Shown: positions 6,844 to 52,926, numbered from the stretch's first letter. The stretch is 64,000 nucleotides of DNA from Chitinophagales bacterium (GCA_019638515.1 JAHBTS010000002.1:23395-87394), one strand, 5' to 3'. Numbers and translations: made by a program. The notes: generated from the sequence alone by a model not told the origin.

Positions 6844-7070
6844 ATTTTTTTACTATGGATATGGATAAAGTTTGGTTCTTATTGTTAGCAAACAGTTTTT
6901 TAACTGCATGGTGGTTTCGTAAAATAATAATACGCATAGTGCTGTTTCGCGCTGTGTTTCCGCAAAAGGTATAACTCCGGAAAGATTTTCGTTCGTTCTG
7001 TCCGTTTTGTTAGGCTGTGAAATTTAAATGTTTCGCAGCCTTTATTATTTTCGGCTGGCTTGAAATAAAA

Positions 7071-9320: not shown

Positions 9321-9641
9321 ATGGAACTATTATTTGCAATCCTTATCTCGTTCGCATTGGGTGGAGGCGATGGCGCTAACATTACCGGAGGTTATGGCGA
9401 TCTTTTCTACAAAGATTTAACTGCCGAAGAGCAAAAGAAATTTGATGAGATAACCATTACCGGAGGTTATGGCGATCTTTTCTTTAAAAACTTATCGGAT
9501 GCTGAGCAAAAAGAATTAGCAAAACTGACCATCACCGGAGGCTATGGCGATTTGTTCTTTAAAGATGGCGCCAACATTACCGGAGGTTATGGCGATTTGT
9601 TCTTAAAAACACTCGAGCAATTGAGAGACGAACAGAAGTAA
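9321..9641 (+). CDS. small repeat peptide with four ITGGYGDLF[YFL]K units
   Basis: 106-aa ORF. 30-nt units at 9381..9410, 9456..9485, 9531..9560 and 9576..9605 each encode I-T-G-G-Y-G-D-L-F-x. Hydrophobic N-terminus. Followed by a hairpin terminator at 9671..9696. Confidence 0.6.
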   Translation: MELLFAILISFALGGGDGANITGGYGDLFYKDLTAEEQKKFDEITITGGYGDLFFKNLSDAEQKELAKLTITGGYGDLFFKDGANITGGYGDLFLKTLEQLRDEQK

Positions 9642-36019: not shown

Positions 36020-36227
36020 GTTTGAGTCCGTTTTTATGTTAGATGAATTGAATTTTGAACAATTAGCAGTTGAGGGTGTGAAAATGTACATTACGGTGTG
36101 AAAAAAAAATTTTTTTCCACTTGATTTTTTCAAGAAAAATACGTCTCAATTTTTCTTAAGAAAAACTTTGTTTCGTGCAACTGTGGAAATAGAATTTTTT
36201 ATTTCTCAATTGTTGGTAAAAAGCAAA

Positions 36228-37151
36228 CTATGTGCCAATTTTTACAGGTGCATTCGCAACCACAATACCTTTCTTTTTAGGCTCGAAATAATATTCTACT
36301 CTGCCTAATGCAATGCCTGCCCAACCTACTTGATTTACCAATACTTTTTTGCCATCGGCATTGGTTAGCTCATCGGGTTTAGGCATGAGTGTGTGCGTGT
36401 GGCCGCCAAGAATTAAATCTATGTTGCGACTATTGTATGCAAGTGTGAGGTCGCTTACTTTTTTCTCTTTGTATTTATAGCCAAGGTGCGAAAGGCAAAC
36501 AACCAAATCGCATTTGTAATCGTTTTTTAAACGGGCAGCAATACGGTTGGCTGTTTTAATTGGGTCTTCATAAATGGTTTCGCCATAGTTGGGTTTGGTT
36601 ACTAAACCATCTAATTCAATGCCAATACCAAACACGCCTACATCAATACCATCTATCTTGAAAATTTTGTAGGGCTGTGTTTTCTTAGCTAGAACTGTGT
36701 TGCTAAAATTATAGTTTGCACACAAGAATGGAAAATTGGCAAGAGGCATTTGTTTTGCCAATGCTTCTAAACCATTATCGAAATCGTGATTGCCAAGGGT
36801 AGAGGCATCGTAACGCATTTCGCTCATGAGTTTAAACTCAAGAGAGCCATTAAATAGATTAAAGTACGGAGTGCCTTGCCAAATATCGCCACTATCTAAG
36901 AGCAATACATTTTTTTCTTGACTGCGAATTTTATTGATTACGGCAGCACGGTTGGCAAATCCGCCTAAACCTTGAAAGCGACTTCCATCCATTGGAAATG
37001 GTTCTATGCGCGAATGTTGATCGTTGGTATGTAAGATGGTGAGTTTTTTTACATCGCCATGAGCAAAGGCTTCAAACGGAAATTGCGAGGCTAATAGTAA
37101 ACCTGCTGCGGTTCCTGATTTCTTTAAAAAGTCTCTTCTGTTTAATTGCAT
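36228..37151 (-). CDS. metallophosphoesterase / 5'-nucleotidase family protein with Tat signal
   Basis: 307 aa. RRDFLK twin-arginine signal. Motifs ILHTNDQHS, GDIWQG, GNHDFD and GGHTH. Confidence 0.8.
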   Translation of the reverse strand: MQLNRRDFLKKSGTAAGLLLASQFPFEAFAHGDVKKLTILHTNDQHSRIEPFPMDGSRFQGLGGFANRAAVINKIRSQEKNVLLLDSGDIWQGTPYFNLFNGSLEFKLMSEMRYDASTLGNHDFDNGLEALAKQMPLANFPFLCANYNFSNTVLAKKTQPYKIFKIDGIDVGVFGIGIELDGLVTKPNYGETIYEDPIKTANRIAARLKNDYKCDLVVCLSHLGYKYKEKKVSDLTLAYNSRNIDLILGGHTHTLMPKPDELTNADGKKVLVNQVGWAGIALGRVEYYFEPKKKGIVVANAPVKIGT

Positions 37152-37225: not shown

Positions 37226-37328
37226 AAAAAGAAAAGGCGAAACTTGCGCCCCGCCTTAAATGTTTTCACAACGGAATAATCCTTATTGTAAATAGCTTCA
37301 AAATGTAAGGCAAACTTAGAATTATTTT
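37226..37328 (-). ncRNA. predicted tracrRNA (divergent from cas9)
   Basis: Minus-strand reading is ...CUAAGUUUGCCUUACAUUUUGAAGCUAUUUACAAU-AAGGAUUAUUCCGUUGUGAAAACAUUU-AAGGCGGGG-CGCAAG-UUUCGCCUU-UUCUUUUU.
- The anti-repeat (37285..37322) pairs with the reverse complement of the array repeat (GUUGUAAAUAGCUUUCAGAAUGUA): about 23 pairs, including 2 G-U pairs and a 1-nt bulge.
- It is followed by a nexus-like AAGG-AUUAUUCC-G and an intrinsic terminator.
- The 5' end is approximate. Confidence 0.7.
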
Positions 37329-37363: not shown

Positions 37364-40300
37364 ATGACTACAATACTAGGATTAGATTTAGGAACCAACT
37401 CCATTGGTTGGGCGCTCATTCAGCAAGATTTTGAAAACAAACAGGGGAAAATTCTTGGAATGGGAAGTCGGATTATTCCGATGAGTACTGATGATAAAGA
37501 TGAATTTACATCAGGCAATACGATTTCTAAAAATCAGAAACGAACATCCAAACGCACTCAACGAAAAGGTTATGACCGCTATCAGTTAAGGCGAAAATCA
37601 TTAACAAACCTTTTGCTCAAAAACGAAATGTTCAATGATGCTCTTTTCAAATTACAACCATTGGAATTGTGGGGCTTGCGAGCAAAAGCTGTAAATGAAA
37701 AAATTGAGTTAAAAGAACTCGGTCGTGTTTTGTACCATCTTAACCAAAAGCGCGGATACAAAAGCAGTAGAAGCGATGCGAATTTGGATAAAAAAGATAC
37801 AGAGTATGTAGCCGAAGTGAAAAGCCGCCACCAAGAAATAAAAGAACAAGGCATTACTATCGGACAAAAGTTTTTTGCTGAATTACAGAAAGACCAATAC
37901 TACCGTGTGAAACAGCAAGTGTTTCCGCGCGAAGCTTACATCGAAGAATTTGAAGCGATTTGCAAGCAACAGCAAAAACATTATCCACAAATAATTACCG
38001 ATGAATTTATCGCTCAACTGCGCGATGAAATCATCTACTATCAACGCAAATTGAAGTCACAAAAAGGTTTGGTAAACATTTGCGAATTTGAGGGCTTCTC
38101 TACTAAAAATAAAGAAGGTAAGGATGCTTTCGTTGGTCCTAAAGTTGCACCCAAAAGCTCGCCACTTTTCCAGATTTGTAAGATTTGGGAAGGCATTAAC
38201 ACCATCTCACTAAAAAACAAATCGGGCGAAACTTTTGAAATTTCAATAGAGCAAAAACAAGAATTGTTTAAACATCTTGACAACCATGAAAAGCTAACTT
38301 CAACTGACCTACTTAAGATTTTAAATCTGAAAAAAAATGATGGTTGGTATACAAATAAGCAAATTGAACGAGGCATACAAGGTAATATCACCAAGACACA
38401 ATTTTTAAAGTACTTGCCACAAGACAATGAGTTACTTACATTCAACTTAACTGTAAAAAACAGCGATAAAGAGACCTATTTGGTAGACCGCAAAACAGGC
38501 GATGTAAAGGGAAGTAAGCAACACTTAATAATTGATGCAGATATTGAACAGCAACCGCTTTACCAATTGTGGCACACCATTTATTCGATTGCTGATGTAG
38601 AAGAATGTGTGAATGTGCTTATTAAAAAATTCAACCTCGACCGAGAAATAGCTGAAAAATTGGCAAACATAGATTTTACAAAATACGCTTTCGGTAATAA
38701 GTCTTCAAAAGCAATACGTAAAATTTTGCCTTACTTAATGCAAGGCGATGTTTACAGTGATGCTTGTTCGTATGCGGGTTACAATCATTCAAACTCGCTT
38801 ACGAAAGACGAAAATATAAAACGTATTTTGTTAGACAGCATTCCAAATCTTCCGAAAAATAGCTTGCGCCAACCTGTGGTGGAGAAAATTCTCAACCAAA
38901 TGATAAACGTAGTAAACGCAATTATTGAAAAACACGGAAAACCTGATGAAATTAGAATTGAATTAGCACGCGATCTGAAACAAAATAAAGAAGAACGAAA
39001 CAAGACTTTCACGGACTTAAATAAGAGAGAACGCGAGAATGAAACTATTAGGAAACGACTTACTGATGAATACAAATTACGTGCGACAAGAAATAACGTA
39101 ATTAAATGGCGTTTGTTTCATGAAATCAATAATGAAGAAAGCAAATTGAATGCTTTTTGTGTTTATTGTGGAAAACCATTCGGAATTACTGATGCTTTAA
39201 GTGGTAACAATGTGGACGTAGAGCATATTATTCCTAAATCATTGTTGTTTGATGATTCGCAAAGCAACAAAACGCTTAGTCACAGAAGTTGTAACGAAGC
39301 AAAAGGCAATAAAACGGCTTATGATTTTATGTCGTCAAAAACTAGCGATGAATTAAATACCTATATCGAGCGAGTAGATAACCTTTTCAAAAACAAACTA
39401 ATCAACAAGGCGAAACGCGATAGGTTATTAATGCCCGAAGCAAAAATTCCAAAAGATTTTATTGACCGCCAGCTACGCGAAACACAATATATAGCCCGAA
39501 AATCAAAAGAAATTTTGGAGCAAGTGTGCACAAACGTTTGGAGTACGAGCGGAACAGTAACGGAATACTTGCGCAGATTGTGGGGGTGGGACGATGTGCT
39601 AATGAATTTGCAACTGCCCAAATATCGCGAATTAGGACTTATCGAATGGAAAGAATGGGAAACAAATGACGGTCAAAAGCACAAGCAGGAAGTAATCAAA
39701 GATTGGAGCAAGCGCGATGATCACCGCCACCACGCAGTTGATGCACTCGTAATTGCATGCACACAACAGGGCTTTATACAGCGCATCAATAATTTAAGTT
39801 CACAAGGCAATCGTGATGAAATGTATGCTGAAGTTGGTACCACAAGAAAAGGCTCTCTATTAGAAAACTATATCGTTAAACACCGTCCATTTACAACCAA
39901 AGAAGTAGAAAACAAAGCCGCTGAAATTTTAATTTCATTCAAAGCAGGAAAAAAGGTTGCTTCATTCGGCAAACGAAAAATAAAGAAAGACGGTAAAAAA
40001 CAAGTAGTCCAAACAGGAATTATTGTGCCGCGTGGTGCATTAAGCGAAGAAAGTGTTTATGGAAAAATTAAATCGCTTGACAAAAACAAGCCTCTAAAGT
40101 ATTTGTTTGAAAATCCTGATTTAATACTAAAAGGTTATATTAAGAAGTTAGTAAAGGAGCGATTAGCAAAACATGAAAACGATTCAAAAAAAGCTATTGC
40201 ATCATTAAAGAAAGAGACGATATATCTTGATGAAGAGAATAAAAAAGTGCTGGAATATGCCACTTGCTACAAAGAAGAATACGTAATTAAATATCCTCTT

Positions 40301-41035
40301 GAAACGATTAAGGCGAAAGATGTAGAATATATTGTTGATGAAAAAGTAAAAGCCGTTATAAAAGCTCGTTTAGAACAATTCGGGAACAAGGAAAAAGAAG
40401 CGTTTAAAACACCTTTATTTTTAAACGAGGAAAAACAAATTCCAATTAAAACAGTTCGAATCTTTAGAGGACTTTCATCTATTGTTCCGGTAAATAAAGA
40501 TGGATTGGGTTTTGTAAAACCCGGCAACAATCATCACATTGCTTTCTATGTTGATGAAAATGGAAAGAAAATAGAACACATTTGTACTTTCTGGCACGCA
40601 GTGGAACGTAAAAAATATGACCTGCCTGTTATCATCAAAAACCCTAACGAACTTTGGGATAAAATTCTGTTGCTGAAAGATGAATATACACAGGACTTTT
40701 TAGACAAACTTCCAAAGCATAATTGGACCTTTGTAGAAAGTTTACAGCAAAATGAAATGTTTGTTTTGGGGTTGAATGAGGAAGAAATACAACATGCTCT
40801 TTCAACCAATAATAAACGACTTTTAAATCAGCATTTGTATCGAGTGCAAAAAATATCCTCTAATGAATATGTATTTAGACATCATTTAGAAACCTCTGTT
40901 GCCAAAGATGCTAGCAAAGACGTAGAAAAAGCTAAGCAGGATTCAAAACGATACTACAATATTAAGAGTATAGGCTCATTTGAAAAACTAAATCCAAGAA
41001 AAGTTAGAGTTAGTAACCTAGGAGAAGTTGTATAA
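37364..41035 (+). CDS. cas9: Cas9, type II-C (1223 aa)
   Basis: - RuvC-I: ILGLDLGTNSIGWAL (D8)
- Arg-rich bridge helix: KRTSKRTQRKGYDRYQLRRK
- RuvC-II: IRIELARD
- HNH: DVEHIIPKS...SNKTLSHRSCNEAKGNKT
- RuvC-III: DHRHHAVDALVIA
Followed by cas1 and cas2 only, with no csn2 or cas4. Confidence 0.95.
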   Translation: MTTILGLDLGTNSIGWALIQQDFENKQGKILGMGSRIIPMSTDDKDEFTSGNTISKNQKRTSKRTQRKGYDRYQLRRKSLTNLLLKNEMFNDALFKLQPLELWGLRAKAVNEKIELKELGRVLYHLNQKRGYKSSRSDANLDKKDTEYVAEVKSRHQEIKEQGITIGQKFFAELQKDQYYRVKQQVFPREAYIEEFEAICKQQQKHYPQIITDEFIAQLRDEIIYYQRKLKSQKGLVNICEFEGFSTKNKEGKDAFVGPKVAPKSSPLFQICKIWEGINTISLKNKSGETFEISIEQKQELFKHLDNHEKLTSTDLLKILNLKKNDGWYTNKQIERGIQGNITKTQFLKYLPQDNELLTFNLTVKNSDKETYLVDRKTGDVKGSKQHLIIDADIEQQPLYQLWHTIYSIADVEECVNVLIKKFNLDREIAEKLANIDFTKYAFGNKSSKAIRKILPYLMQGDVYSDACSYAGYNHSNSLTKDENIKRILLDSIPNLPKNSLRQPVVEKILNQMINVVNAIIEKHGKPDEIRIELARDLKQNKEERNKTFTDLNKRERENETIRKRLTDEYKLRATRNNVIKWRLFHEINNEESKLNAFCVYCGKPFGITDALSGNNVDVEHIIPKSLLFDDSQSNKTLSHRSCNEAKGNKTAYDFMSSKTSDELNTYIERVDNLFKNKLINKAKRDRLLMPEAKIPKDFIDRQLRETQYIARKSKEILEQVCTNVWSTSGTVTEYLRRLWGWDDVLMNLQLPKYRELGLIEWKEWETNDGQKHKQEVIKDWSKRDDHRHHAVDALVIACTQQGFIQRINNLSSQGNRDEMYAEVGTTRKGSLLENYIVKHRPFTTKEVENKAAEILISFKAGKKVASFGKRKIKKDGKKQVVQTGIIVPRGALSEESVYGKIKSLDKNKPLKYLFENPDLILKGYIKKLVKERLAKHENDSKKAIASLKKETIYLDEENKKVLEYATCYKEEYVIKYPLETIKAKDVEYIVDEKVKAVIKARLEQFGNKEKEAFKTPLFLNEEKQIPIKTVRIFRGLSSIVPVNKDGLGFVKPGNNHHIAFYVDENGKKIEHICTFWHAVERKKYDLPVIIKNPNELWDKILLLKDEYTQDFLDKLPKHNWTFVESLQQNEMFVLGLNEEEIQHALSTNNKRLLNQHLYRVQKISSNEYVFRHHLETSVAKDASKDVEKAKQDSKRYYNIKSIGSFEKLNPRKVRVSNLGEVV

Positions 41036-41239: not shown

Positions 41240-42172
41240 ATGATAAAACGCACCATTTATTTTGGGAATCCCGTTTATTTGAGTTTACGAAATGCTCAAC
41301 TTCAAATTCGCTTACCGGAAGTTGAAAACAACGATACCCTGCCGGAATTGTTTAAAAAAAATGCTGTTACTACTATTCCGGTAGAAGATATTGGCATTGT
41401 GGTATTGGATCACAAACAAGTAACTATTACCCAAGCCTTAATGGAGGCATTGCTTCAAAATAATGCTGTGGTTATTACTTGCGACAGTACTCACCACCCC
41501 ACAGGTTTACTAATGCCGTTGAGCGGCAATACCATACAGAGCGAAAGATTTAAGGCACAGTTGGCTGCCAGCGAACCGTTAAAAAAGCAGCTGTGGGCAC
41601 AAACAGTTTCTCAGAAAATAAAAAATCAATATGCCGTTTTATGCAAGCAAGGTGTTGATGCCAATTATCTTACCACGCTATATAAAAGCGTAAAAAGTGG
41701 CGATTCCGATAATTGCGAGGCTTCGGCAGCAGCCTACTATTGGCAACGTGTATTTCCATCTATTCCAAATTTCAAGCGGGCTAGGGAAGGTACACCACCC
41801 AACCACTACCTTAATTACGGATATGCAATTTTAAGAGCCACCATGGCAAGAAGCATTGTGGCAGCGGGTTTATTGCCCACACTCGGTATTCATCATAGCA
41901 ACCGCTATAATGCTTATTGCTTAGCCGATGACCTTATGGAACCTTATCGTCCGTATATTGATGAAATGGTTTGCCACATTGTAAAAACATCTGAAACGGC
42001 AGCAGAACTTTCAAAAGAAATGAAGGCCTATTTCTTAAAAGTACCTGCCATAGATGTAATGCTGGATGGCGAAAAGAGTCCTTTAATGAATGCCACACAG
42101 CGCACAGCCGTAAGTTTGGTAAAATGCTTTAATGGCGAACAAAGAAAAATGCTTTATCCCGAACTAATATGA
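41240..42172 (+). CDS. cas1: Cas1 (type II)
   Basis: 310 aa. Cas1-like throughout (LNYGYAILRA, PTLGIHH...N.Y.L..DLMEPYRP). 4-nt ATGA overlap with cas2. Confidence 0.93.
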   Translation: MIKRTIYFGNPVYLSLRNAQLQIRLPEVENNDTLPELFKKNAVTTIPVEDIGIVVLDHKQVTITQALMEALLQNNAVVITCDSTHHPTGLLMPLSGNTIQSERFKAQLAASEPLKKQLWAQTVSQKIKNQYAVLCKQGVDANYLTTLYKSVKSGDSDNCEASAAAYYWQRVFPSIPNFKRAREGTPPNHYLNYGYAILRATMARSIVAAGLLPTLGIHHSNRYNAYCLADDLMEPYRPYIDEMVCHIVKTSETAAELSKEMKAYFLKVPAIDVMLDGEKSPLMNATQRTAVSLVKCFNGEQRKMLYPELI

Positions 42173-42513
42173 AAGTAAATACAGATAGACTAAATGCATA
42201 TCGCGTTATGTGGACCCTTGTAATGTACGACCTGCCAACCGAAACCAAGAAAGAGCGCAAAGCAGCAGCCACCTTTCGGAAAGAACTGTTGAATGATGGT
42301 TTTAGTATGTTTCAATTTAGTATGTATGTAAGGCATAGTGCCAGCTCTGAAAATGCAGAAGTGCATAAGCGCAGAGTAAAAGCAGCACTACCTGAATTAG
42401 GTAAGGTAGGTATTTTGCAAATTACCGATAAACAATTTGCACAAATGGAAATTTATTACGGAGCTAAGCCTCAACAATTGCCCCAAGTAGCACAACAATT
42501 AGAAATGTTTTGA
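42169..42513 (+). CDS. cas2: Cas2 (type II)
   Basis: 114 aa. Position and sequence (VMYDLPTETKKERKAAATFRKEL...GFSMFQFSMYVR) are typical of type II Cas2. Confidence 0.9.
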   Translation: MKVNTDRLNAYRVMWTLVMYDLPTETKKERKAAATFRKELLNDGFSMFQFSMYVRHSASSENAEVHKRRVKAALPELGKVGILQITDKQFAQMEIYYGAKPQQLPQVAQQLEMF

Positions 42514-42523
42514 AATAAAAAAA

Positions 42524-42544
42524 TCCGGGTTTTGCCCGGATTTT
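42524..42544. terminator. bidirectional intrinsic terminator between cas2 and the array
   Basis: TCCGGG-TTTTG-CCCGGA hairpin with TTTT on the plus side. The minus side has the longer T-run (TTTTTTTATTT), so it could stop both the cas operon and antisense pre-crRNA transcription. Confidence 0.7.
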
Positions 42545-42583
42545 CAATTAAAGAACTTCACTTTTTTTATTGGCAAAACAAAC
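42541..42583 (-). repeat. degenerate, inverted, partial CRISPR-repeat-like element
   Basis: The minus strand reads GTTTGTTTTGCCAATAAAAAAAGTGAAGTTCTTTAATTGAAAA. Collinear blocks GTTGTT / CCAATAA / GT[G]AAG / TTCT / GAAA match the plus-strand repeat GTTGTTACCAATAAGTCAAAGATACATTCTGAAAG with three indels. It carries the GTGAA variant also seen in the two solitary repeats. Confidence 0.45.
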
Positions 42584-42620
42584 TGAAACGGTTGCTGTTG
42601 CTTACTTTTTCGACTTATCT

Positions 42621-45619
42621 GTTGTTACCAATAAGTCAAAGATACATTCTGAAAGCTATTTACAACAATAAACGGTTGCTTCTTGAACTTTTGAAAGTTG
42701 TTACCAATAAGTCAAAGATACATTCTGAAAGCTATTTACAACAGATTTTTTACTTCCCGCAGGTTACATTATGTTGTTACCAATAAGTCAAAGATACATT
42801 CTGAAAGCTATTTACAACTAGTGTGATTCAATGGTACGAAGCGAAAATGTTGTTACCAATAAGTCAAAGATACATTCTGAAAGCTATTTACAACTCCGTT
42901 GTGGAGCACACTCATTAGCCACCTGTTGTTACCAATAAGTCAAAGATACATTCTGAAAGCTATTTACAACAGCGGTAAAATATATCAGTTGAGCAGCGAG
43001 GTTGTTACCAATAAGTCAAAGATACATTCTGAAAGCTATTTACAACTTTAACCACCGATGGGGAGTGGAGCGACAGTTGTTACCAATAAGTCAAAGATAC
43101 ATTCTGAAAGCTATTTACAACTATCGCTTTACTACTTTGTATTTGCCGGGAGTTGTTACCAATAAGTCAAAGATACATTCTGAAAGCTATTTACAACCTT
43201 ACTCATTTGCAAAGCCAAATCCATTTGTTGTTACCAATAAGTCAAAGATACATTCTGAAAGCTATTTACAACAATGTGTTGGTCTGAATATGATTGAAAG
43301 CGGTTGTTACCAATAAGTCAAAGATACATTCTGAAAGCTATTTACAACCATAATGAAGTACGACTACTGCGGCAGCACGTTGTTACCAATAAGTCAAAGA
43401 TACATTCTGAAAGCTATTTACAACTGTAAGACCGAAGATGAAAAAGCCATGATAGTTGTTACCAATAAGTCAAAGATACATTCTGAAAGCTATTTACAAC
43501 AAAATTATGGTGTAATATATGCCTATTATGTTGTTACCAATAAGTCAAAGATACATTCTGAAAGCTATTTACAACTGCGCAAAAGCGGTTGATGCGCATG
43601 AAGTGTTGTTACCAATAAGTCAAAGATACATTCTGAAAGCTATTTACAACCGCTAACACCTTGCGCCATCAAAGCAGAACGTTGTTACCAATAAGTCAAA
43701 GATACATTCTGAAAGCTATTTACAACAAAATCAATGCTATCGCCATTTTGCATAGGTTGTTACCAATAAGTCAAAGATACATTCTGAAAGCTATTTACAA
43801 CTAAATAAAAACTATTTTCATTTTAAAAAGGTTGTTACCAATAAGTCAAAGATACATTCTGAAAGCTATTTACAACAAAATCTAATTTTCGATATTCCCG
43901 AACCAAGTTGTTACCAATAAGTCAAAGATACATTCTGAAAGCTATTTACAACCCATCGCGCGAGGCTTGCAATATAGGTTCTGTTGTTACCAATAAGTCA
44001 AAGATACATTCTGAAAGCTATTTACAACTAGCCGTATAGTTGTCCTGCCTGTTTTGCGTTGTTACCAATAAGTCAAAGATACATTCTGAAAGCTATTTAC
44101 AACAACATGAAGAGTTTTTTCATTTACAATGTTGTTGTTACCAATAAGTCAAAGATACATTCTGAAAGCTATTTACAACTGAGCCGGAAAGTTTATGCTC
44201 TGCCATTATGTTGTTACCAATAAGTCAAAGATACATTCTGAAAGCTATTTACAACAACCACCAACATGAGTACGTAGTGAGCGGAGTTGTTACCAATAAG
44301 TCAAAGATACATTCTGAAAGCTATTTACAACAGCGAAAGCAGCCGCGACCTTACCTTTACAGTTGTTACCAATAAGTCAAAGATACATTCTGAAAGCTAT
44401 TTACAACTATGAGAATATACTCTTTAAAAGAAGGGTTGTTGTTACCAATAAGTCAAAGATACATTCTGAAAGCTATTTACAACTTAAAGGAGATGGCGAA
44501 ATAGATATTCAAGTTGTTACCAATAAGTCAAAGATACATTCTGAAAGCTATTTACAACATTTTCCCCATGAATGGCAAAACCAAAATTGTTGTTACCAAT
44601 AAGTCAAAGATACATTCTGAAAGCTATTTACAACATTCTCTAATTTGTTTAGAGGATACTCCAAGTTGTTACCAATAAGTCAAAGATACATTCTGAAAGC
44701 TATTTACAACCAGCTTACAATTACCTTGAAACATTCACAAGTTGTTACCAATAAGTCAAAGATACATTCTGAAAGCTATTTACAACAGATTTGTTAAACG
44801 AATAAAATTAAAATCAGTTGTTACCAATAAGTCAAAGATACATTCTGAAAGCTATTTACAACTACACGTTTTTGAAATATCTATTTGAGTAGTTGTTACC
44901 AATAAGTCAAAGATACATTCTGAAAGCTATTTACAACGCAGCATGCAGCATTTTGACTAAAAAATAAGTTGTTACCAATAAGTCAAAGATACATTCTGAA
45001 AGCTATTTACAACGGAACGCTGCAATGGCTGCAAACATTGCGGTTGTTACCAATAAGTCAAAGATACATTCTGAAAGCTATTTACAACTGTCGCTTGCGG
45101 ATTGGTCTGCACCTTCTAGTTGTTACCAATAAGTCAAAGATACATTCTGAAAGCTATTTACAACTATTAAGGCCAACAAGATTATTTACAGCCAGTTGTT
45201 ACCAATAAGTCAAAGATACATTCTGAAAGCTATTTACAACCCAAAGCAGCAGTATGTGCAGCAAATACGGTTGTTACCAATAAGTCAAAGATACATTCTG
45301 AAAGCTATTTACAACCAAACTCTTGGGCTAAATTTATCGCCAACTGTTGTTACCAATAAGTCAAAGATACATTCTGAAAGCTATTTACAACTTTTTCTTT
45401 GCACTTCCACTTTCAAAATCTGTTGTTACCAATAAGTCAAAGATACATTCTGAAAGCTATTTACAACTTAAAGCATCCGTTTCTTTTTTCTCGAAATGTT
45501 GTTACCAATAAGTCAAAGATACATTCTGAAAGCTATTTACAACTAATCGCTCGTGAATGCACAAGTAACGCACGTTGTTACCAATAAGTCAAAGATACAT
45601 TCTGAAAGCTATTTACAAC
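42621..45619 (-). CRISPR. CRISPR array: 40 identical 46-nt repeats, 39 spacers of 29-30 nt
   Basis: The plus-strand repeat is GTTGTTACCAATAAGTCAAAGATACATTCTGAAAGCTATTTACAAC. I located each of the 40 copies by hand (first 42621..42666, last 45574..45619, period 75-76 nt) and saw no variant copy within the array. The minus strand is assigned because the tracrRNA anti-repeat pairs with the reverse complement. Confidence 0.97.
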
Positions 45620-45730
45620 CAATAACAGGAAACGTATTGGCGATGGACGGGGCGTTTTGGCACTACACTTCTATTGAAGAAACGAATTTGAACCTGCCAT
45701 AAAACTATTCAAACGAAGCACTTCATCCGC

Positions 45731-45763
45731 CATATTGCCAAACCGATGTTATGTGTAGCTAGT
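45731..45763. repeat. left arm of the imperfect inverted repeat flanking the parDE cassette
   Basis: CATATTGCCAAACCGATGTTATGTGTAGCTAGT. 24 of the 27 positions of the right arm (46417..46443, reverse complement CATATTTCCGTGTTATGTGTAACCAGT) are matched, including a perfect 11-mer TGTTATGTGTA (45747..45757 versus 46423..46433). Confidence 0.6.
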
Positions 45764-45764
45764 A

Positions 45765-46066
45765 TTAATCGTTCAACCTGTTTTCAATATCCATTTGTTG
45801 ATGTAAAACTCTGATAATCTCAATTAGGTTCTCTTTTTATTGATTTTGTAGAAAATAAAATGCGATTTCACATTTGAGCGTAAATAACCTTTTCTAACGT
45901 GAGAATAATCTTTTCCAGTGTCAGGATTTTCGGCTAAGTATTCGATTTCGTCAAGTATAAGATTGTGAAATCTGTCAGCTTGTTCTACAGACCAAGTTTC
46001 AAAGGTGTAAAGCCAAATATTTTTGAGGTCATTTTGGGCTTCATTACTTATTTTGAACATCATCAT
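45765..46066 (-). pseudogene. parE: ParE/RelE-family toxin gene interrupted by a frameshift in a homopolymer
   Basis: The annotated frame gives 80 aa ending ...SHFIFYKINKKRT* (stop at 45824..45826). The adjacent frame continues KENLIEIIRVLHQQMDIENRLND* to 45765, the expected ParE C-terminus. The switch lies at the T5 run at 45834..45838 (A5 in the gene sense). Confidence 0.75.
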
Positions 46067-46311
46067 TTTGTGATGTGTTTTTGATGAAGCGTTTTCAGTA
46101 AGTTATTTCTATTAAAGTCTTTTACAAAACCAGATTTTTCTCCTTTTTTGAGTTCATTAATAAGTTCTGTTTTCTTAGTTTCTTCATATTCAAACATTCT
46201 CAATGCAGCTCTTACAACCTCACTTGCAGATGAAAATTTTCCGGATTGAACTTGTTGATTTATGAAAGCATCAAAATAATCTCCTAATAGTATTGAAGTA
46301 TTTTTTGCCAT
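46063..46311 (-). CDS. parD: ParD-family (RHH) antitoxin
   Basis: 82 aa. MAKNTSILLGDYFDAFINQQVQSGKFSSASEVVRAALRMFE is typical of ParD. ATGA overlap with parE. Confidence 0.85.
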   Translation of the reverse strand: MAKNTSILLGDYFDAFINQQVQSGKFSSASEVVRAALRMFEYEETKKTELINELKKGEKSGFVKDFNRNNLLKTLHQKHITK

Positions 46312-46416
46312 AACTTTATGGTTTTGTCAAAAAAACCAAATGTTGGTATTTTGTGCAAACTTTTTAAGTTGATTTTAAGGAGGAAGAGGAGTTTCTTTTT
46401 AAAAGTAGCGTTTAAA

Positions 46417-46443
46417 ACTGGTTACACATAACACGGAAATATG
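46417..46443. repeat. right arm of the imperfect inverted repeat flanking the parDE cassette
   Basis: See the left arm. It overlaps the 13-nt conserved flank of solitary repeat 1. Confidence 0.6.
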
Positions 46444-46450
46444 CGAAATC

Positions 46451-46496
46451 GTTGTTACCAATAAGTGAAAGATACATTTTGAAAGCTATTTACAAC
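46451..46496 (-). repeat. solitary variant CRISPR repeat 1
   Basis: GTTGTTACCAATAAGTGAAAGATACATTTTGAAAGCTATTTACAAC. Same orientation as the array, with 2 substitutions (C to G at 46467, C to T at 46479). Preceded by AATATGCGAAATC (46438..46450). Confidence 0.95.
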
Positions 46497-46600
46497 GCTA
46501 TGATGTCTCTACACAAAGACTCAACTAGTCTACACTATTTTAGAAATTTTGCAAGAGAGTATTGGCTCTTATCACTGGTAATAATAACCTTACTGCACAA

Positions 46601-46632
46601 TTAAACAAAAAACCACCTCCTAAGAGGTGGTT
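46601..46632 (-). terminator. intrinsic terminator of the T9SS-cargo operon
   Basis: AACCACCTC-CTAA-GAGGTGGTT hairpin (9 bp). On the minus strand it is followed by TTTTGTTTAA. Confidence 0.7.
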
Positions 46633-46654
46633 CGGAATAACTTTTTAAAAGAAT

Positions 46655-49123
46655 TTAAAGTCGAACGAATTTTTTGGTAGCAATAGAGTTTCCTTTCTTA
46701 ATAGTAAGAAAATAAAACCCCTTCGGAATATCTCCGATATTTAACTCGTTTGAGTAATAATAACCAACCGTTCTTCCATGACAATCTGTAATTGTTACTT
46801 GGGTAAATGCATCTACAAGTACTCCTTTAATAAAAAGGTTTCCACTTGTTGGATTTGGGTACAAAGTAATTTTGCTCAACGAATTAGATTCTTCTATACT
46901 ATTTAAATGATTAAACTTAAGTTCCTTTGGGTTTGAAATAAATCTGCTGAGCGGGCCTTGGTTATTCGGAATAGTGTCTGATGAATCAAATTGGCCAGAT
47001 ATGTATAAGGAAAGACCTTCAAAAGGGATGTCGTTTTTAGAAATAACAAGGGGCATGCTTGCTAGCTTGTTACCCAACCACCAATACCATGTTCCTTGTT
47101 TGGGTAAATTCAAAGAGGTAATTACAAGCGAATCTTTTAATTTTGATTCTTTAATGTCAAAGTCAAACTCTGGCTTACTGAATTTTTCACCTGTTGCATT
47201 TACTTGATAAGCAACAGGTCTAGCCCCTGAACGAACCGTACCCCATTCCCATGCTCCAATTTGATTATGTGAGTGAAAATCAAAAAAACTAACCGGGCTA
47301 TTTTTAATAATCCCAGGTATTGCATTTTGTGATGGTCCTGCAGAGCTATTAACTATAACAAATGTGTCATCGTCCATTGTCCACATATCAGTATTTGACA
47401 TTGAGCCTGTTGGTAAGCCTGGAAAAATTTTTATCTTAGAAAGTGCCCATCCTACAATTGAGTCGTAAGTTAATTGTGCGTAGTGTGCATTAGAGTGGCC
47501 ACCAGAGTTTACTTCGCATGAACGATTATCAAATTGACTAATTATCCAACTGTTTTGACCAAAACCCTCTGCTTCAAATTGGAAGTCATGACCTGCGTCA
47601 CGATCAAATCCAAACGCACTGCTGTTTATAAGTTGAACAAGTTGAGTATCAATCAAAAAAGGCTCTGGTGCGTTTGGATAAAATCTCCACGCACTTAAAG
47701 GCCAAGAAATAGGCCATTTTGCTAAATTGCGGGAACTCCGTAATACAAGATAACAGTTCAACGGCTCAATCCATGTCATAAAAATACTATTAACATGATC
47801 AGCATCTATTAGTTGACTAGGTAGAGCATTTGCCACACTACAACTATCCCATTTCATGGGCGGAAAATTATTCGGTGGATGGATAGTGTATTGTTGTTGT
47901 GAATTATTATTTATAATTAATGGTGGTTGATAAGTAGCCACACTGTCAGCAAACCACCCAAAAAGCACCGAAAAACTATCACAAACCATTCCATCATGCG
48001 AATCAGATGCTGGGTAGGTAGCCTTAAATCTTCCTAGAGAGTCATACTGGTTTAGCTGATTAAAATTGTTTACCGCATTTATATCATCAACTGACCAAAA
48101 ATGACCTTTTTGATACCATGTTTTACCTAAATTAAATCCACAACAAAACCCTTGTCGTCCATACCCAGGAAATTCAATCCTACGCAAGAAAAATCGTTGT
48201 TCTTTACCTTTAAGATTAACACCATCGCCTCCCTTATTAATAGAATAGTGTTGATTTGAGCGACTAAAACTTGTATCCCAGTTTATAATACCAGGGCAAT
48301 CTATTGAAGCAGAAACACTACCCACTAATTTTTTAACAACCTTCAGTTCTATATTAGGTAAATGATACAAATATTTATTATGAAGAGTATCATCAAGCCC
48401 CAAAAGGTAAGGCTCTCTTAAATAATTTAGGTTCTGCAAGGGTAGTAAATCATCGAAATATACATAAACACATCCGTTTGGTTCGCAGAATTTATGACTA
48501 TTTTCAATGGAGTTAAGCTCTGTTATGGAAACATTTAAGGTTCCCAATATTGCGCTTGTTTCTGAAAAGAAATAGTTTACACCAAACAAAAACATGGCCG
48601 AAATAGCAGAGTCACCCAAAACAACATCTCCACCAGATGGTCCATAATCAGGAGATCCATACGAACAAACAAGAACACTCTCATCTGAATCATATCTCAG
48701 CATTAAAACAACAAAAGTGTCGTTATTATTTTGATAGTCTATACTTAATACTGAATCAATTGGTATAACAGGTTGCCAATTTGTTGAATTATTCGTCTTT
48801 AGGTACCAAATAGTATCATTTGCAATAGCAATAAACTTTGAATTTGAACCTGTAACAAGTACCGTATCGCCCGAGTAGGGAAGCTGAATACCTCCTTGAG
48901 AAGTACTTACAACATTTCCCACAACAGTAGGCTGTGTGCTTTTTGAAGCATTTAAAATTGTAAGCATTTGTGATTCGTTGGTAGCATTAATCGTCCCGAT
49001 CACCTTTTCATTTTGATAAATAGTGTACGAATTTGGATATTTCACCGCATAAAAAAAATCACGACCATGGGCAGTTATCATGCCCATGATCATCACTGCC
49101 ATAAAAAGGAATTTGTTTTTCAT
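46655..49123 (-). CDS. secreted protein of unknown function with T9SS type-A C-terminal sorting domain
   Basis: 822 aa. Signal peptide MKNKFLFMAVMIMGMITAHG. C-terminus ITLYPNPTSGNLFIKG...GFYFLTIKKGNSIATKKFVRL. The body matches no family I recognise. Confidence 0.7.
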   Translation of the reverse strand: MKNKFLFMAVMIMGMITAHGRDFFYAVKYPNSYTIYQNEKVIGTINATNESQMLTILNASKSTQPTVVGNVVSTSQGGIQLPYSGDTVLVTGSNSKFIAIANDTIWYLKTNNSTNWQPVIPIDSVLSIDYQNNNDTFVVLMLRYDSDESVLVCSYGSPDYGPSGGDVVLGDSAISAMFLFGVNYFFSETSAILGTLNVSITELNSIENSHKFCEPNGCVYVYFDDLLPLQNLNYLREPYLLGLDDTLHNKYLYHLPNIELKVVKKLVGSVSASIDCPGIINWDTSFSRSNQHYSINKGGDGVNLKGKEQRFFLRRIEFPGYGRQGFCCGFNLGKTWYQKGHFWSVDDINAVNNFNQLNQYDSLGRFKATYPASDSHDGMVCDSFSVLFGWFADSVATYQPPLIINNNSQQQYTIHPPNNFPPMKWDSCSVANALPSQLIDADHVNSIFMTWIEPLNCYLVLRSSRNLAKWPISWPLSAWRFYPNAPEPFLIDTQLVQLINSSAFGFDRDAGHDFQFEAEGFGQNSWIISQFDNRSCEVNSGGHSNAHYAQLTYDSIVGWALSKIKIFPGLPTGSMSNTDMWTMDDDTFVIVNSSAGPSQNAIPGIIKNSPVSFFDFHSHNQIGAWEWGTVRSGARPVAYQVNATGEKFSKPEFDFDIKESKLKDSLVITSLNLPKQGTWYWWLGNKLASMPLVISKNDIPFEGLSLYISGQFDSSDTIPNNQGPLSRFISNPKELKFNHLNSIEESNSLSKITLYPNPTSGNLFIKGVLVDAFTQVTITDCHGRTVGYYYSNELNIGDIPKGFYFLTIKKGNSIATKKFVRL

Positions 49124-49488
49124 TTTTTATTTATAATATAGGAATTATGATACGCTTTGCGCTGGGAAAAGCGATGATAATAAATCATTTTCTTTTTCAT
49201 AGCTTCTACCAATTTACGCTTTGCTTCATGCTCTTCTATCGCAGCTTGTTCTATTGCGCGAATCATTCTCATCATTCTTAATTTTTCTGAAGCTTGATTT
49301 ATTTTTGATTTCGCGTTATCGATACTTGATTTCCCTTTTTCAACGGTAGCATTGAATTTATTTTTCAATGATTCTTTGGTGTGGTTTATTGCATCTTTTG
49401 CCATTTCAGGAGTGGCAAGTGTATGTTCAACCACAGTTTCCACCTTTGCTTTTGTCCAGTTTTTTGCTTTCTCCATCCAAGATTTCAT
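49120..49488 (-). CDS. hypothetical helical, Lys/Glu-rich protein (122 aa)
   Basis: ORF with an ATGA overlap onto the 822-aa gene, implying co-translation in one operon. No motif recognised. Confidence 0.5.
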   Translation of the reverse strand: MKSWMEKAKNWTKAKVETVVEHTLATPEMAKDAINHTKESLKNKFNATVEKGKSSIDNAKSKINQASEKLRMMRMIRAIEQAAIEEHEAKRKLVEAMKKKMIYYHRFSQRKAYHNSYIINKK

Positions 49489-49665
49489 TGATTTTTTCTT
49501 GGTATTGATTTTTTCTTTAATTGCCTTTCTTCGTTCTGCACCAATTTCTTTATAAGTTTTTCTTTTCTTGTGTTTCGACCTGTTGATAGAAAATGAATAA
49601 AATATTCTACTTTTGAATTGTACTAAAAATGGGAAGCCTTCAGGAATACTGCAAGCAAAAAACAG

Positions 49666-49696
49666 TTGTCTTTGGTTGCATAAGTTCGTATCTTTG
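49666..49696 (+). promoter_or_regulatory. Bacteroidota-type promoter (TTG-N20-TATCTTTG) for the FicA-like ORF
   Basis: TTG at 49666..49668 and TATCTTTG at 49689..49696. The ATG lies 10 nt downstream, implying a near-leaderless mRNA. Confidence 0.45.
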
Positions 49697-49705
49697 TTGG
49701 CAACA

Positions 49706-49900
49706 ATGAAATTCTACGATAAATATCCACAACTAAAAGAAAAAGGTTACTTGACTCAAGTGCTCACTAAAACTGTGTTCTCAACAATGTTGTTGGAGAA
49801 CCAGCAAGTGTCAATGTCGAAAGTTGAACAGATTGTTTTGTCATTATTGAAGGAGCAAGAATTAAAAGGCGGTCAATTCTTTTCTAATCAAGGTCATTAA
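49706..49900 (+). CDS. small protein with a Fic-inhibitory [S/T]xxxE[G/N] motif (FicA/VbhA-like antitoxin candidate)
   Basis: 64 aa from ATG 49706 (the track ORF starts at 49613): MKFYDKYPQLKEKGYLTQVLTKTVFSTMLLENQQVSM.... TMLLEN fits the inhibitory-helix motif. It converges on fic and overlaps its 3' end by 39 nt. Confidence 0.5.
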   Translation: MKFYDKYPQLKEKGYLTQVLTKTVFSTMLLENQQVSMSKVEQIVLSLLKEQELKGGQFFSNQGH

Positions 49901-50443
49901 AGGCTCAAAATTTCCATTGTCAGCCAATTTCATCGCATCAATATAAATTTTTCTACTATCACCTTCTCTGTAATAGAATTCAAGTGGTTTGTATCCAAAC
50001 TTGAGAGCAACAATGTTCATCAAAATCCGTCCCGTTCTGCCGTTGCCATTATTGAATGGATGTATGCGGATAAATTCATAGTGGGCAAAAGCTAAGCAAC
50101 CAATGTGGTCTTGAAGTGTTTCTGAGTTTCGAATTTTAAAATTTAGGTTGTCAATGAACTGATACATTAGTTGCAATACTTTCGATGGTTCAGGAGGTGT
50201 TAGTTGTCCAACCGTTACAGTTGTTGTTCGCCAAGAGCCAGCCCAGTCATAAAGTTCTGAGAATGCAATTCTGTAAATTTCTAAAAGAAGTTGTGTTGAA
50301 ATTTCTATTTCACTATCCAACTCAAACATAAAAAGTTCAGCCGCAGCAATTCCTTTGGCTTCATACTCATTGATAAGATTTTTATCAGTAAGTTCGAGTT
50401 TATTCTCATCAGGCGATGGTGTCCAGTTGGTGTTATTGTCCAT
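49862..50443 (-). CDS. fic: Fic family protein (class I-like; no internal inhibitory motif seen)
   Basis: The Fic core motif HPFNNGNGRTGR is present. The track ORF begins at a TTG (50485); the ATG at 50443 (MDNNTNWTP) is the more likely start. I found no [S/T]xxxE[G/N] within the protein. Confidence 0.85.
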   Translation of the reverse strand: MDNNTNWTPSPDENKLELTDKNLINEYEAKGIAAAELFMFELDSEIEISTQLLLEIYRIAFSELYDWAGSWRTTTVTVGQLTPPEPSKVLQLMYQFIDNLNFKIRNSETLQDHIGCLAFAHYEFIRIHPFNNGNGRTGRILMNIVALKFGYKPLEFYYREGDSRKIYIDAMKLADNGNFEPLMTLIRKELTAF

Positions 50444-50518
50444 TTTCTCAAAGGTATATTTTTTATTGTTTGCAGCGGCTACCAAGCACTACTGCTAAAT
50501 CGCCCAATATGCAAAATC

Positions 50519-50564
50519 GTTGTTACCAATAAGTGAAAGATACATTCTGAAAGCTATTTACAAC
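50519..50564 (-). repeat. solitary variant CRISPR repeat 2
   Basis: GTTGTTACCAATAAGTGAAAGATACATTCTGAAAGCTATTTACAAC. Same orientation as the array, with 1 substitution (C to G at 50535, the same change as in solitary repeat 1). Preceded by AATATGCAAAATC (50506..50518). Confidence 0.95.
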
Positions 50565-50625: not shown

Positions 50626-52926
50626 GTGTTGTTTAAAAAGTACTTACTTAGAATTGGAGTGCTGGGAGTAGTGTTGGCAATAGCTTTTTTGCTGCTGCAT
50701 TTTCTTTTCCCTTTAAACTATACGCCCACATATTCTACGTTGGTGTACGATTCGCAAGGGAAAATAATACATGCCTTCCTTTCACCCGATGATAAATGGC
50801 GCTTCAAGACAGAGCGGCACGAAATTTCTCCGGAACTTAAAAAGGTGTTCTTAAACAAGGAAGATAAATGGTTTTATTACCACCCGGGCATAAATCCGTT
50901 TTCGATTGTAAGAGCCATTTCAAACAATATATTTAAAGGGAAAAGAACATCGGGCGCTTCTACCATTACCATGCAAGTTGCACGTATGCTGGAACCCAAA
51001 GAGCGCACGTATATAAGTAAGCTAGTGGAAGTGTTTAGAGCCTTGCAACTAGAATTGAAATTTACTAAAGATGAACTGTTTGAAATCTATATAAATAAAG
51101 TTCCTTACGGTGGAAACATAGAAGGCGTGAAGGCTGCGGCTCTTATTTTTTTTAATAAACATCCTGCTTATTTAAGTGTGGGTGAATTAACCACGCTAAG
51201 TGTAGTACCCAACCGCCCTTCGAGTTTAAGGTTAGGAAAGAATAATAGTGCGGTAGAAGCAGTGCGCAACCAATGGCTGCGAAAATTTGAGGAGGAGGGT
51301 GTTTTTTTAAGTAGTGAAATAAGCGATGCATTGCAAGAGCATGTAAATGCACAAAGGAGATTATTGCCACGTTTTGCCCCACATTTTTCATACAGAATAA
51401 AATCTTTAGGAGGTAATATTTTTACCACTATAGATTTAGAAAAGCAGCGCAAATGCGAGCAAATAGTTCAAACGTATGTAAACGGGCTGCGCAGTAGAGG
51501 CATACAAAATGCTGCTGTAATGGTAATTGAAAATGGCAGTGGCAATGTAATTTCGTATGTAGGCTCTGCCGATTTTTACCACGCTGCCGATGCGGGGCAG
51601 GTAGATGGCGCAAAAGCTGTACGACAACCCGGCAGCACACTCAAGCCTTTATTGTATGGCTTGTGCTTTGATGCAGGTATTTACACGCCCAAAACAATGG
51701 TGGCAGATGTGCCTTGCAATTTCGATGGATATGTGCCGGAAAATTACGACAGCAAGTTTAGAGGCGAGGTTACGGTGGAGTATGCACTTGAAAATTCACT
51801 TAATATTCCTGCCGTAAAGGCATTGGAAGCGCTGGGGAAAGAAAATATGCTAACGGCATTAAAGCGGTGTGGTTTCAGCAGTGTTTCAAAACACGAAAAG
51901 AGGCTGGGGCTTTCGCTTATTTTAGGAGGCTGCGGTGTTACTTTAGAAGAAATGAGCAACCTCTATAGATGCATTGCCAATAAAGGCATTTACTCACCCA
52001 TTCATTATTTAAAGGGAGTGAAGAAAGCTGCTACAGGCGATACGATACTTTCTGCTACTGCATCTTTTATGCTCTGCGAAATACTTTCTAAAGTAGCACG
52101 CCCGGATTTGCCTGTAAATTGGGAAGGCAGCAAAACATTGCCACGCATTGCATGGAAAACAGGCACCAGTTACGGCAGAAAAGACGCATGGAGCATAGGT
52201 TTTAATAAGAATTATACCATTGGGGTTTGGGTAGGAAATTTTAGTAATGTTGGCGTGCCGGATTTAAACGGTGCAGCCATTGCCACACCTTTGTTGTTTC
52301 AACTTTTTAATACCATAGACTATAATTCGCCCAACGAATGGTATGCCATGCCGCGTGAGTGCGGAGTAAGAACCGTTTGCAGCCATTCGGGTTTAGAACC
52401 CAATAGCTTTTGCCGCAATTTGGTGAGCGATTATTTTATTCCGCTGGTATCGAGCAATAAACGTTGCGAGCATTTGAAGGAAATAGCCACCGATGCCAAG
52501 ATGCAAATTTCATATTGTGCAGAATGCCTGCCAACTGCGGGCTACAAACGGTTGCTGTTCGAGAATTATTCGCCCGAAATTATTCGTTGGTTCGATGAAA
52601 ACCATGTGAACATAAAAAGAATACCGCCACACAATCCTTTATGCAGCAGGATATTTAAAGGCAATGAACCTACCATTATTTCGCCCGTAAACGGTAGTGA
52701 GTATTATATCGAAAAAGGGCAGCCGCCCTCTATACAATTGAGTTGCGAAACAGCTGGCGATGTGGAATATGTTTTTTGGTGGGTAAACAATAAATTGGTT
52801 AGCAAGGTTAAAGCAGGGGAGAAGTATTTTTGTCTGCTGCCGGAGGGCGATGTAAAAATTTCGTGCACAGACGATAAAGGCCGCAATACCGATTGCAGGG
52901 TAAAAGTGCGGCAGGTAGATTGGTAG
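50626..52926 (+). CDS. pbpC: penicillin-binding protein 1C (bifunctional glycosyltransferase/transpeptidase)
   Basis: 766 aa. GT51 motifs (EDKWFYYHPGINP, RTSGASTITMQVAR), transpeptidase SxxK (GSTLKP), and a PBP1C-type C-terminal domain. GTG start. Confidence 0.85.
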   Translation: MLFKKYLLRIGVLGVVLAIAFLLLHFLFPLNYTPTYSTLVYDSQGKIIHAFLSPDDKWRFKTERHEISPELKKVFLNKEDKWFYYHPGINPFSIVRAISNNIFKGKRTSGASTITMQVARMLEPKERTYISKLVEVFRALQLELKFTKDELFEIYINKVPYGGNIEGVKAAALIFFNKHPAYLSVGELTTLSVVPNRPSSLRLGKNNSAVEAVRNQWLRKFEEEGVFLSSEISDALQEHVNAQRRLLPRFAPHFSYRIKSLGGNIFTTIDLEKQRKCEQIVQTYVNGLRSRGIQNAAVMVIENGSGNVISYVGSADFYHAADAGQVDGAKAVRQPGSTLKPLLYGLCFDAGIYTPKTMVADVPCNFDGYVPENYDSKFRGEVTVEYALENSLNIPAVKALEALGKENMLTALKRCGFSSVSKHEKRLGLSLILGGCGVTLEEMSNLYRCIANKGIYSPIHYLKGVKKAATGDTILSATASFMLCEILSKVARPDLPVNWEGSKTLPRIAWKTGTSYGRKDAWSIGFNKNYTIGVWVGNFSNVGVPDLNGAAIATPLLFQLFNTIDYNSPNEWYAMPRECGVRTVCSHSGLEPNSFCRNLVSDYFIPLVSSNKRCEHLKEIATDAKMQISYCAECLPTAGYKRLLFENYSPEIIRWFDENHVNIKRIPPHNPLCSRIFKGNEPTIISPVNGSEYYIEKGQPPSIQLSCETAGDVEYVFWWVNNKLVSKVKAGEKYFCLLPEGDVKISCTDDKGRNTDCRVKVRQVDW

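Follow-up and report, generated by a model that had tools for sequence, protein, structure and literature searches.

How can two full-length repeats from a CRISPR array come to stand by themselves, with genes between them? The question is posed by a 64,000-nt stretch of DNA from a Chitinophagales bacterium (GCA_019638515.1 JAHBTS010000002.1:23395-87394), called the window below, which carries a type II-C CRISPR-Cas locus. A search for the 46-nt repeat, allowing up to 3 mismatches, found 42 copies, all on the plus strand, against 0 expected from shuffled sequence. Forty of the 42 are identical and make up the ordinary array (42621-45619), which has 39 spacers of 29-30 nt and is read from the minus strand. 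The other two are R*1 (46451-46496, 2 mismatches) and R*2 (50519-50564, 1 mismatch). Both have G for C at plus-strand position 17 (46467 and 50535), and R*1 alone has a further C to T change at 46479. On the plus strand each is directly preceded by AATATGC[G/A]AAATC (46438-46450 and 50506-50518), and repeat and flank together form 59-nt direct repeats with 2 mismatches (96.6 % identity) around 46497-50505 (4,009 bp).

An earlier note on this DNA had described the two same-sense copies, their shared substitution, the 13-nt flank and the enclosed length in these terms, and the description proved accurate. It had also stated that the flank is foreign to the array, and 0 of the 39 spacers carry it. 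The gene content is as claimed: between the copies lie a cargo protein of the type IX secretion system (T9SS) and a Fic/FicA-like pair, with no integrase or transposase in or beside the segment by Pfam, PADLOC and NCBIfam. The note further placed the copies beyond the array, and took the shared substitution and flank to imply duplication of one unit. We find that R*1 and R*2 are leader-distal repeats of the same array. They are probably its oldest repeats, with gene modules sitting in the places of spacers and the repeats acting as joints for recombination.

Polarity of the array

The type II-C operon consists of cas9 (37364-41035), cas1 (41240-42172) and cas2 (42169-42513), all on the plus strand and identified with Pfam and NCBIfam. 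The segment that follows (42514-42620, plus strand) shares homology with the flanks next to cas2 in two related II-C loci (p < 0.0005), and by this homology it is the leader, the spacer-acquiring end. In L046, a contig with cas2, the leader and the start of an array, the fifth-oldest spacer of the window (45241-45269) stands third from the leader. A candidate trans-activating CRISPR RNA (tracrRNA) can be read from the sequence on the minus strand at 37226-37306, divergent from cas9. It has a -7 box, TAAGTTTG (37318-37311), a 22-nt anti-repeat with one bulge, ACATTTTGAAGCTATTTACAAT (37306-37285), and a tail, AAGGATTATTCCGTTGTG..., with a nexus-like AAGG and a terminator, GGCGCAAGTTTCGCC, followed by a T-run near 37226. 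Its partner in pairing is the minus-strand repeat, GTTGTAAATAGCTTTCAGAATGT, of which the first 23 nt form a duplex with the anti-repeat at -27.4 kcal/mol (shuffled mean -15.8, standard deviation 3.2), and CRISPR RNAs (crRNAs) are therefore read from the minus strand, toward cas2. Transcription in type II-C loci runs from repeat-borne promoters toward the leader, the variable end (PMC8092290, PMC10309648). Because the leader homology, the spacer shared with L046 and the sense of tracrRNA and crRNA all agree with this literature, the side at 45619 is the old end. R*1 and R*2 lie at this old, leader-distal end, which we call the trailer.

Repeat positions are given in crRNA sense from here on. 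Each array repeat has TTG at positions 2-4 and TATCTTTG at positions 23-30. R*1, an old array repeat, has A at position 18 (window 46479) and C at position 30 (46467), while R*2, the terminal repeat of the array, has C at position 30 (50535). The A at position 18 of R*1 is the base found in the repeats of related species and gives a Watson-Crick pair with the tracrRNA, in contrast to the G-U pair of the array repeats; R*1 keeps the pairing with the tracrRNA, at -27.3 kcal/mol. The solitary copies were also considered as tracrRNA anti-repeats. They were rejected as such on account of their direct orientation and the lack of a nexus or terminator tail, the tracrRNA itself being read at 37306-37226.

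Continuity and polymorphism in sister strains

The comparators were about 40 metagenome contigs obtained by exact-protein look-ups, which are 97-100 % identical to the window in the stretches that they share. The key contig is L053, 64 kb long, from activated sludge and assembled at k = 127. In crRNA sense PBP1C is followed there by a truncated repeat and about 29 nt, and these by a full repeat with a spacer-length segment, S0 (described below), the Fic/FicA module, and repeat R*1' with its own S0. Then come ParDE, a canonical repeat with S0, genes for proteins of 145 and 149 aa, and repeat R' (5' end GCTAT), after which an ordinary array of at least 9 repeats with 29-30-nt spacers runs to the contig end. 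The truncated repeat is of the R*2 type over positions 1-37, including the C at position 30, and its last 9 nt are degenerate. Another assembly, L054, has the same junction between R' and ordinary array and the same trailer spacers. Since the series in L053 is unbroken, the modules lie inside the trailer of a working array, and the "solitary" repeats are array repeats split by genes. R*1 and R*2 share the sequence family, orientation and leader-distal side of trailer repeats and belong to one series with the array: in L053 three gene-bearing intervals lead from the ordinary array outward, and a spacer-sized interval and the truncated last repeat, next to PBP1C, lie further out still. The copies are thus not beyond the array.

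The strains differ from one another at the repeats. Relative to L053, the window has an additional module of 3,146 bp (46497-49642) with the T9SS protein and a 122-aa protein, where L053 and L034 have 8-9 unrelated nucleotides; L036 has a third continuation at the same junction (49641). The 4-kb cargo of the earlier note is a composite of this strain-specific module and the Fic/FicA module shared with the sister strains. A single 59-mer without insert, which the note had suggested looking for in relatives, was found in none of the roughly 40 strain-level loci; in the variants that did occur, only 46497-49642 is missing and both repeats remain. The window also lacks the 145/149-aa module, and its 40-repeat array abuts ParDE. 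It has one terminal repeat, R*2, which corresponds to positions 1-37 of the truncated repeat of L053 joined to positions 38-46 and the S0 of the next repeat. In a low-coverage contig, L058 (1-396), the T9SS module has at its start (window 49642) unrelated DNA in place of the Fic module. This may be another arrangement or an assembly chimera, and the junction is too weak to be used.

A larger difference is found in L018 and L020, two contigs from independent samples, in which R' is joined to a diverged tracrRNA tail (ACAAC followed directly by AATAGTTTCCGTTGTG...). The junction region (L018 1986-2110; window equivalent from 37276 downward) runs on into the metallophosphatase and dnaA genes. Both contigs are without the anti-repeat, cas9, cas1, cas2, the leader and all spacers, and have kept all trailer modules and repeats. 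The breakpoint is the boundary between anti-repeat and tail of the tracrRNA. Several contigs assembled at k = 31 end exactly at this boundary (37284-37286), which suggests that forms with and without cas genes coexist in the samples concerned. In the window the locus and its variable trailer lie two genes from dnaA (34583-36133), with a metallophosphatase gene (36228-37151) between (34583-37151, minus strand), and the CRISPR-Cas locus is probably near the replication origin.

The surroundings of R*1 recur in 5 independent assemblies and those of R*2 in 7, so the layout is not an assembly artefact. In L049 and L051, two related II-C loci, the arrays are clean and nothing comparable occurs within 4-8 kb, and trailer modules are therefore not a general property of the lineage. 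Among GTDB genomes, relatives of the PBP1C gene are at most 73 % identical, with no upstream synteny and no such repeats there, and are uninformative for the locus. A public search with the repeat and the first four flank bases (GATT) returned a single metagenome match, the sister strain L034. A contig binned as Ignavibacteriaceae, L005, shares 1.3 kb (6779-8121) with the middle of the window PBP1C gene at 99.2 % identity and nothing else; it is probably chimeric or wrongly binned.

A spacer-length segment beside the trailer repeats

The 13-nt flank is part of a longer segment. The 30 nt that follow R*1 (46421-46450) and R*2 (50489-50518), both read on the minus strand, and the 30 nt after the repeat upstream of the 145/149-aa module in sister strains are mutually similar, and are the three copies of S0. 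Their global alignment scores of 7-9 fall within the top 0.1-0.4 % of those of 741 real spacer pairs (mean -6.5, standard deviation 3.6), and tests on 80-nt flanks gave p <= 0.007. The likeness fades after about one spacer length, and the opposite sides of the repeats are unrelated. In crRNA sense, each interval that bears a module begins with a diverged copy of S0, with the module placed after it and before the next repeat. The simplest reading is that S0 derives from an old repeat-spacer unit that is present three times. With a third unit of related flank in the sister strains, the pair is more than the product of random decay, and the earlier note was right on this point.

Repeat and S0 together gave no conserved RNA structure and no covariation, and Rfam returned weak CRISPR-DR matches only. 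Two further identities for the flank were tried and rejected. In the R*2 flank, a run of TTTTTTATTG at a comparable distance resembled a leader, as if it marked a fossil leader-repeat junction; the flanks compared with three leaders gave p = 0.16-0.90, where the leaders compared with each other gave p < 0.0005 in the same test. As a tracrRNA tail, the R*1 flank gave p = 0.057 against the tail at R' and p = 0.31 against that of the window, and the identity was dropped as unproven.

Probable exchange between repeats

The substitution at plus-strand position 17, which the two solitary repeats have in common and none of the array repeats has, is not fixed in the lineage: in L053 and L034 the repeat in the place of R*1 has the canonical base. 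Differences between R*1 of the window and its orthologue in these contigs are confined to about 20 nt, within which R*1 equals R*2 of the window. The cluster is made up of positions 30 (C/G) and 38 (G/A) together with an indel of 3 nt immediately beyond the repeat, and over the 50 nt that follow the strains do not differ. The pattern suggests that R*1 gained the "private" substitution of the terminal repeat through a short gene-conversion tract. Because the substitution also occurs in the truncated terminal repeat of L053, and because the differences cluster as conversion would have them, the shared base needs no duplication. This part of the earlier claim is not supported.

A hybrid repeat is found in L022, a short contig of 1.7 kb. 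It combines the 5' part of R' with the 3' part of R*1 and joins a copy of the 149-aa gene to ParDE. The gene is 94.7 % identical to that of L018, and the ParDE side is 99.65 % identical. L022 may represent a second, diverged copy of the module in the slot upstream of ParDE, or else a recombinant circle or a duplication.

Gene modules of the trailer

Next to the ordinary array stands the ParDE module (45620-46420, minus strand), which is present in all strain contigs and always flanked by two repeats. Its genes, parE (45824-46066) and parD (46063-46311), both on the minus strand, were identified by Pfam matches (3.6e-13 and 1.8e-25). ParE has 80 aa in the window and L018 and 100 aa in L021, L025 and L053. 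The homology of L021 to the window stops at 45748 (region 45748-46066), another variable junction, downstream of ParE. The T9SS module lies directly against R*1. It encodes an 822-aa protein that ends in a T9SS sorting domain (46655-49123, minus strand) and a 122-aa open reading frame (ORF; 49120-49488, minus strand), and ends in a terminator (46633-46610, minus strand) before R*1.

The Fic/FicA-like module (49643-50488, minus strand) holds the Fic gene (49862-50443, minus strand), which matches Pfam Fic (4.7e-19) and PADLOC PDC-S04, a candidate defence family (2e-40). Fic has its own TACCTTTG box at 50456-50449, 5 nt before the ATG. A FicA-like ORF of 64 aa (49706-49900, plus strand) runs convergently to Fic, whose 3' end it overlaps, and has a TATCTTTG box of its own at 49689-49696. 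Its TMLLEN motif, read from the sequence, fits the Fic-inhibitory signature [ST]xxxE[GN]; it has no match in Pfam, PADLOC or NCBIfam. The 145/149-aa module of the sister strains is a lipoprotein/membrane-protein pair. GC content is 0.32-0.37 in the accessory genes and 0.39-0.41 in the flanks. No self-targeting spacers against the modules were found. The variable region is bounded by the PBP1C gene (50626-52926, plus strand; Pfam), conserved in all strain contigs.

Elsewhere in the window, a tandem repeat of period 75 (2.5 copies, 9380-9563) and short Gly-rich-looking repeats of 21-24 nt (62123-62213) have no relation to the CRISPR locus.

Probable recombination at the repeats and the alternatives

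In the explanation that we consider likely, the trailer repeats would serve as 46-nt blocks of portable homology. Recombination between them would delete modules (the 145/149-aa module, absent from the window strain, would be an example), move or duplicate them, as the hybrid repeat of L022 may illustrate, and merge terminal repeats, as in R*2; R*1 would owe its "private" substitution to short gene conversion by the terminal repeat. Another junction, from the last array repeat to the end of the anti-repeat, has removed cas9-cas1-cas2 and every spacer in other strains. What the sequences show is the anatomy, the polarity, the strain differences and the hybrid junctions; the mechanism, the succession of events, the descent of S0 from a tripled repeat-spacer unit and any stabilizing part of the toxin-antitoxin modules are inferred. 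Among the origins listed in the earlier note, "recombination between repeat units that captured cargo" fits best, given the hybrid repeat of L022, the presence, absence and moves of modules, and the loss of cas genes. The trailer repeats probably make no guide RNAs.

Several points weigh against this explanation. The copies of S0 are 30-40 % diverged, where the repeats beside them have only 0-4 mismatches in 46, and triplication of a spacer does not fully explain the gap. That modules sit exactly where S0 meets the following repeat is a hint of some site-directed process. The comparators are metagenome contigs throughout, the 40-repeat array stands directly beside ParDE only in the window assembly, and L022 is too short for a circle, a tandem duplication and a second slot to be told apart. 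The trailer repeats may, moreover, have a regulatory or promoter role.

The promoter role can be stated as an explanation in its own right, in which repeat and S0 have been kept as a cassette that drives the downstream module. This is unlikely, though it would be compatible with recombination joints. Every canonical repeat carries, on the gene strand, a promoter of the Bacteroidota type (TTG and TATCTTTG), and repeat-borne promoters have been reported for II-C arrays (PMC8092290, PMC10309648). The motif TAnnTTTG is enriched upstream of ORF starts in the window, 8 of 55 having it within 60 nt against about 3 % expected. S0 adds a second -7-like box, 22 nt after the TTTG of the repeat (TATGTTTG in L018, TATATTTG in L053 and CATATTTG at Rb of L053). 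The genes among the trailer repeats are all on the minus strand, co-oriented with the repeats, except the 64-aa FicA-like ORF, and the 145/149-aa module has no other exact box upstream. However, both solitary repeats of the window have the box destroyed (TATCTTTC), the boxes in their S0 copies are degenerate (CATATTTC, CATATTGG), Fic carries its own box, and three or four co-directed modules have no statistical significance. Trailer repeats may possibly act as promoters in other strains; in the window this role is unneeded. A wider scheme, in which the trailer is an integron-like capture platform where kilobase cassettes come, go and switch slots at repeat borders by Cas1-Cas2 or some other activity directed at repeats, repeat and S0 supply the promoter, and toxin-antitoxin genes guard the array, is quite unlikely. 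Giant spacers are decidedly improbable: here Cas1-Cas2, or another activity at repeat borders, would have inserted kilobase DNA in an integron-style capture of genes. The modules do abut repeat borders exactly (46496/46497 and the junctions of L053 and L034), at least four different contents occur in the slot immediately 5' of R*1, and repeats that flank modules share variants (G to C at position 30 in R*1 and R*2, G to A at position 4 in Rdeg and R'). Yet the modules are at the old end, away from the leader, only one side of the T9SS module is bordered by a repeat, and one side of a module abuts S0 instead of a repeat, which means that the repeat was not simply duplicated around an insert. 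The common variants are accounted for by conversion and hybrid repeats. Cas1-Cas2 integrases, moreover, measure prespacer length, which counts against inserts of kilobases.

Two further readings raised by the earlier note, guide RNAs and mobile elements, drew no support from the tests. Guide RNAs like small CRISPR/Cas-associated RNAs (scaRNAs) or crRNA-like RNAs (crlRNAs), made from the solitary repeats, could direct Cas9 to repress toxin or other host genes. R*1 and R*2 keep full pairing with the tracrRNA, and they stand beside modules of toxin-antitoxin type, as in CreTA/crlRNA systems. A guide would lie 5' of its repeat, however, and the shared 13 nt are 3', on the wrong side. Seeds of at least 10 nt, taken from the 5' side of R', the first array repeat and the two solitary copies, matched only themselves in the 64-kb window and in L018. 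The would-be guide of R*1 has four variants among strains, the terminator of the T9SS module precedes R*1, and the repeats persist in strains without cas9 and anti-repeat, so that a regulatory guide is very improbable. Nor are the 59-mers likely to be the ends of a mobile element, whether as attachment (att) sites, target duplications or solitary repeat units of phage or plasmid origin; of the readings considered, we find this one extremely improbable. Such an element would be suggested by direct repeats that bracket slightly low-GC accessory genes. Against it stand the lack of an integrase or transposase, of any strain with an empty single-copy site, and of unity in the 4 kb, which consist of two independently varying modules. 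The repeat core had 0 matches to viral contigs, and no plasmid or phage record resembled the bracketed segment at the DNA level. In L053 an ordinary array follows on from these same repeats, and the setting is chromosomal, between the gene on the dnaA side and PBP1C.

Relation to known systems

The explanation by recombination at array repeats places the locus among known forms of altered arrays. Spacer loss and array rearrangement through recombination between repeats are well known. The mechanism that we infer here is the same, except that gene modules and the cas operon would be exchanged, not 30-nt spacers. IS6110, an insertion sequence (IS), interrupts the direct-repeat (DR) locus of Mycobacterium. 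Similarly, IS256 splits the II-C array of Flavobacterium psychrophilum (PMC10309648). In these cases, as here, foreign DNA splits a functioning array and leaves its pieces in register; the present locus differs in having no transposase and no target-site duplication, and in having several strain-variable modules, each after a repeat and S0.

Toxin-antitoxin cassettes also occur in chromosomal integrons. By analogy, toxin-antitoxin modules between recombining direct repeats could penalize large deletions and so stabilize the trailer. The likeness to integrons is one of analogy only: there is no integrase and no attI or attC, and the joints are CRISPR repeats. A closer case is the II-C locus of Flavobacterium columnare, in which ParDE is likewise embedded, between cas9 and the array (PMC8092290); here it lies between repeats instead.

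Terminal repeats are those that mutate most (PMC12839519). R*1 and R*2 resemble degenerate terminal repeats in their position at the old end, their orientation with the array, their point variants and, in L053, a truncated last repeat. The old-end repeats here differ in being set apart by gaps of 0.83 and 4.0 kb that genes fill, and in having variants that would be shared through conversion and not acquired by independent decay. In the same survey, II-C alone among the subtypes has "proximal" repeats that are more mutated than its terminal ones (PMC12839519). Such a pattern would arise if tools that assign orientation inverted II-C arrays, whose transcription runs toward the leader, and the present locus fits this explanation.

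Functional solitary repeats include the scaRNA of Francisella, CreTA/crlRNA and the RNA anti-CRISPRs of phages (PMC10651486; bioRxiv 2024.12.27.630466). They have in common with R*1 and R*2 an isolated repeat near cas and toxin genes that is able to pair with the RNA partner of the effector. Unlike them, the repeats described here have no conserved guide or target in the window, are chromosomal and continuous with an array, and persist after the loss of cas genes. In full-text literature no matching description of interrupted arrays or of giant spacers with genes was found, which is weak evidence of absence. The locus is an unusual form of a known kind, array ends that have been interrupted or have degenerated, and does not constitute a class of its own.

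Significance

CRISPR arrays are usually viewed as stores of memory in 30-nt units. Here the old end of an array holds gene modules, two toxin-type systems among them, and natural strains with 97-99.7 % identity over the shared DNA that aligns have swapped, lost or relocated modules at the repeats, and differ also by loss of the whole cas operon. The locus thus offers an example, at the level of a population, of CRISPR repeats shaping a variable genomic island, and of a Cas9 locus that is shed and leaves scars of repeats behind. For annotation, it means that "orphan" repeats near arrays can be the ends of those arrays, with genes in between. Should the insertions turn out to be site-directed, the CRISPR adaptation machinery would be linked to the capture of genes.

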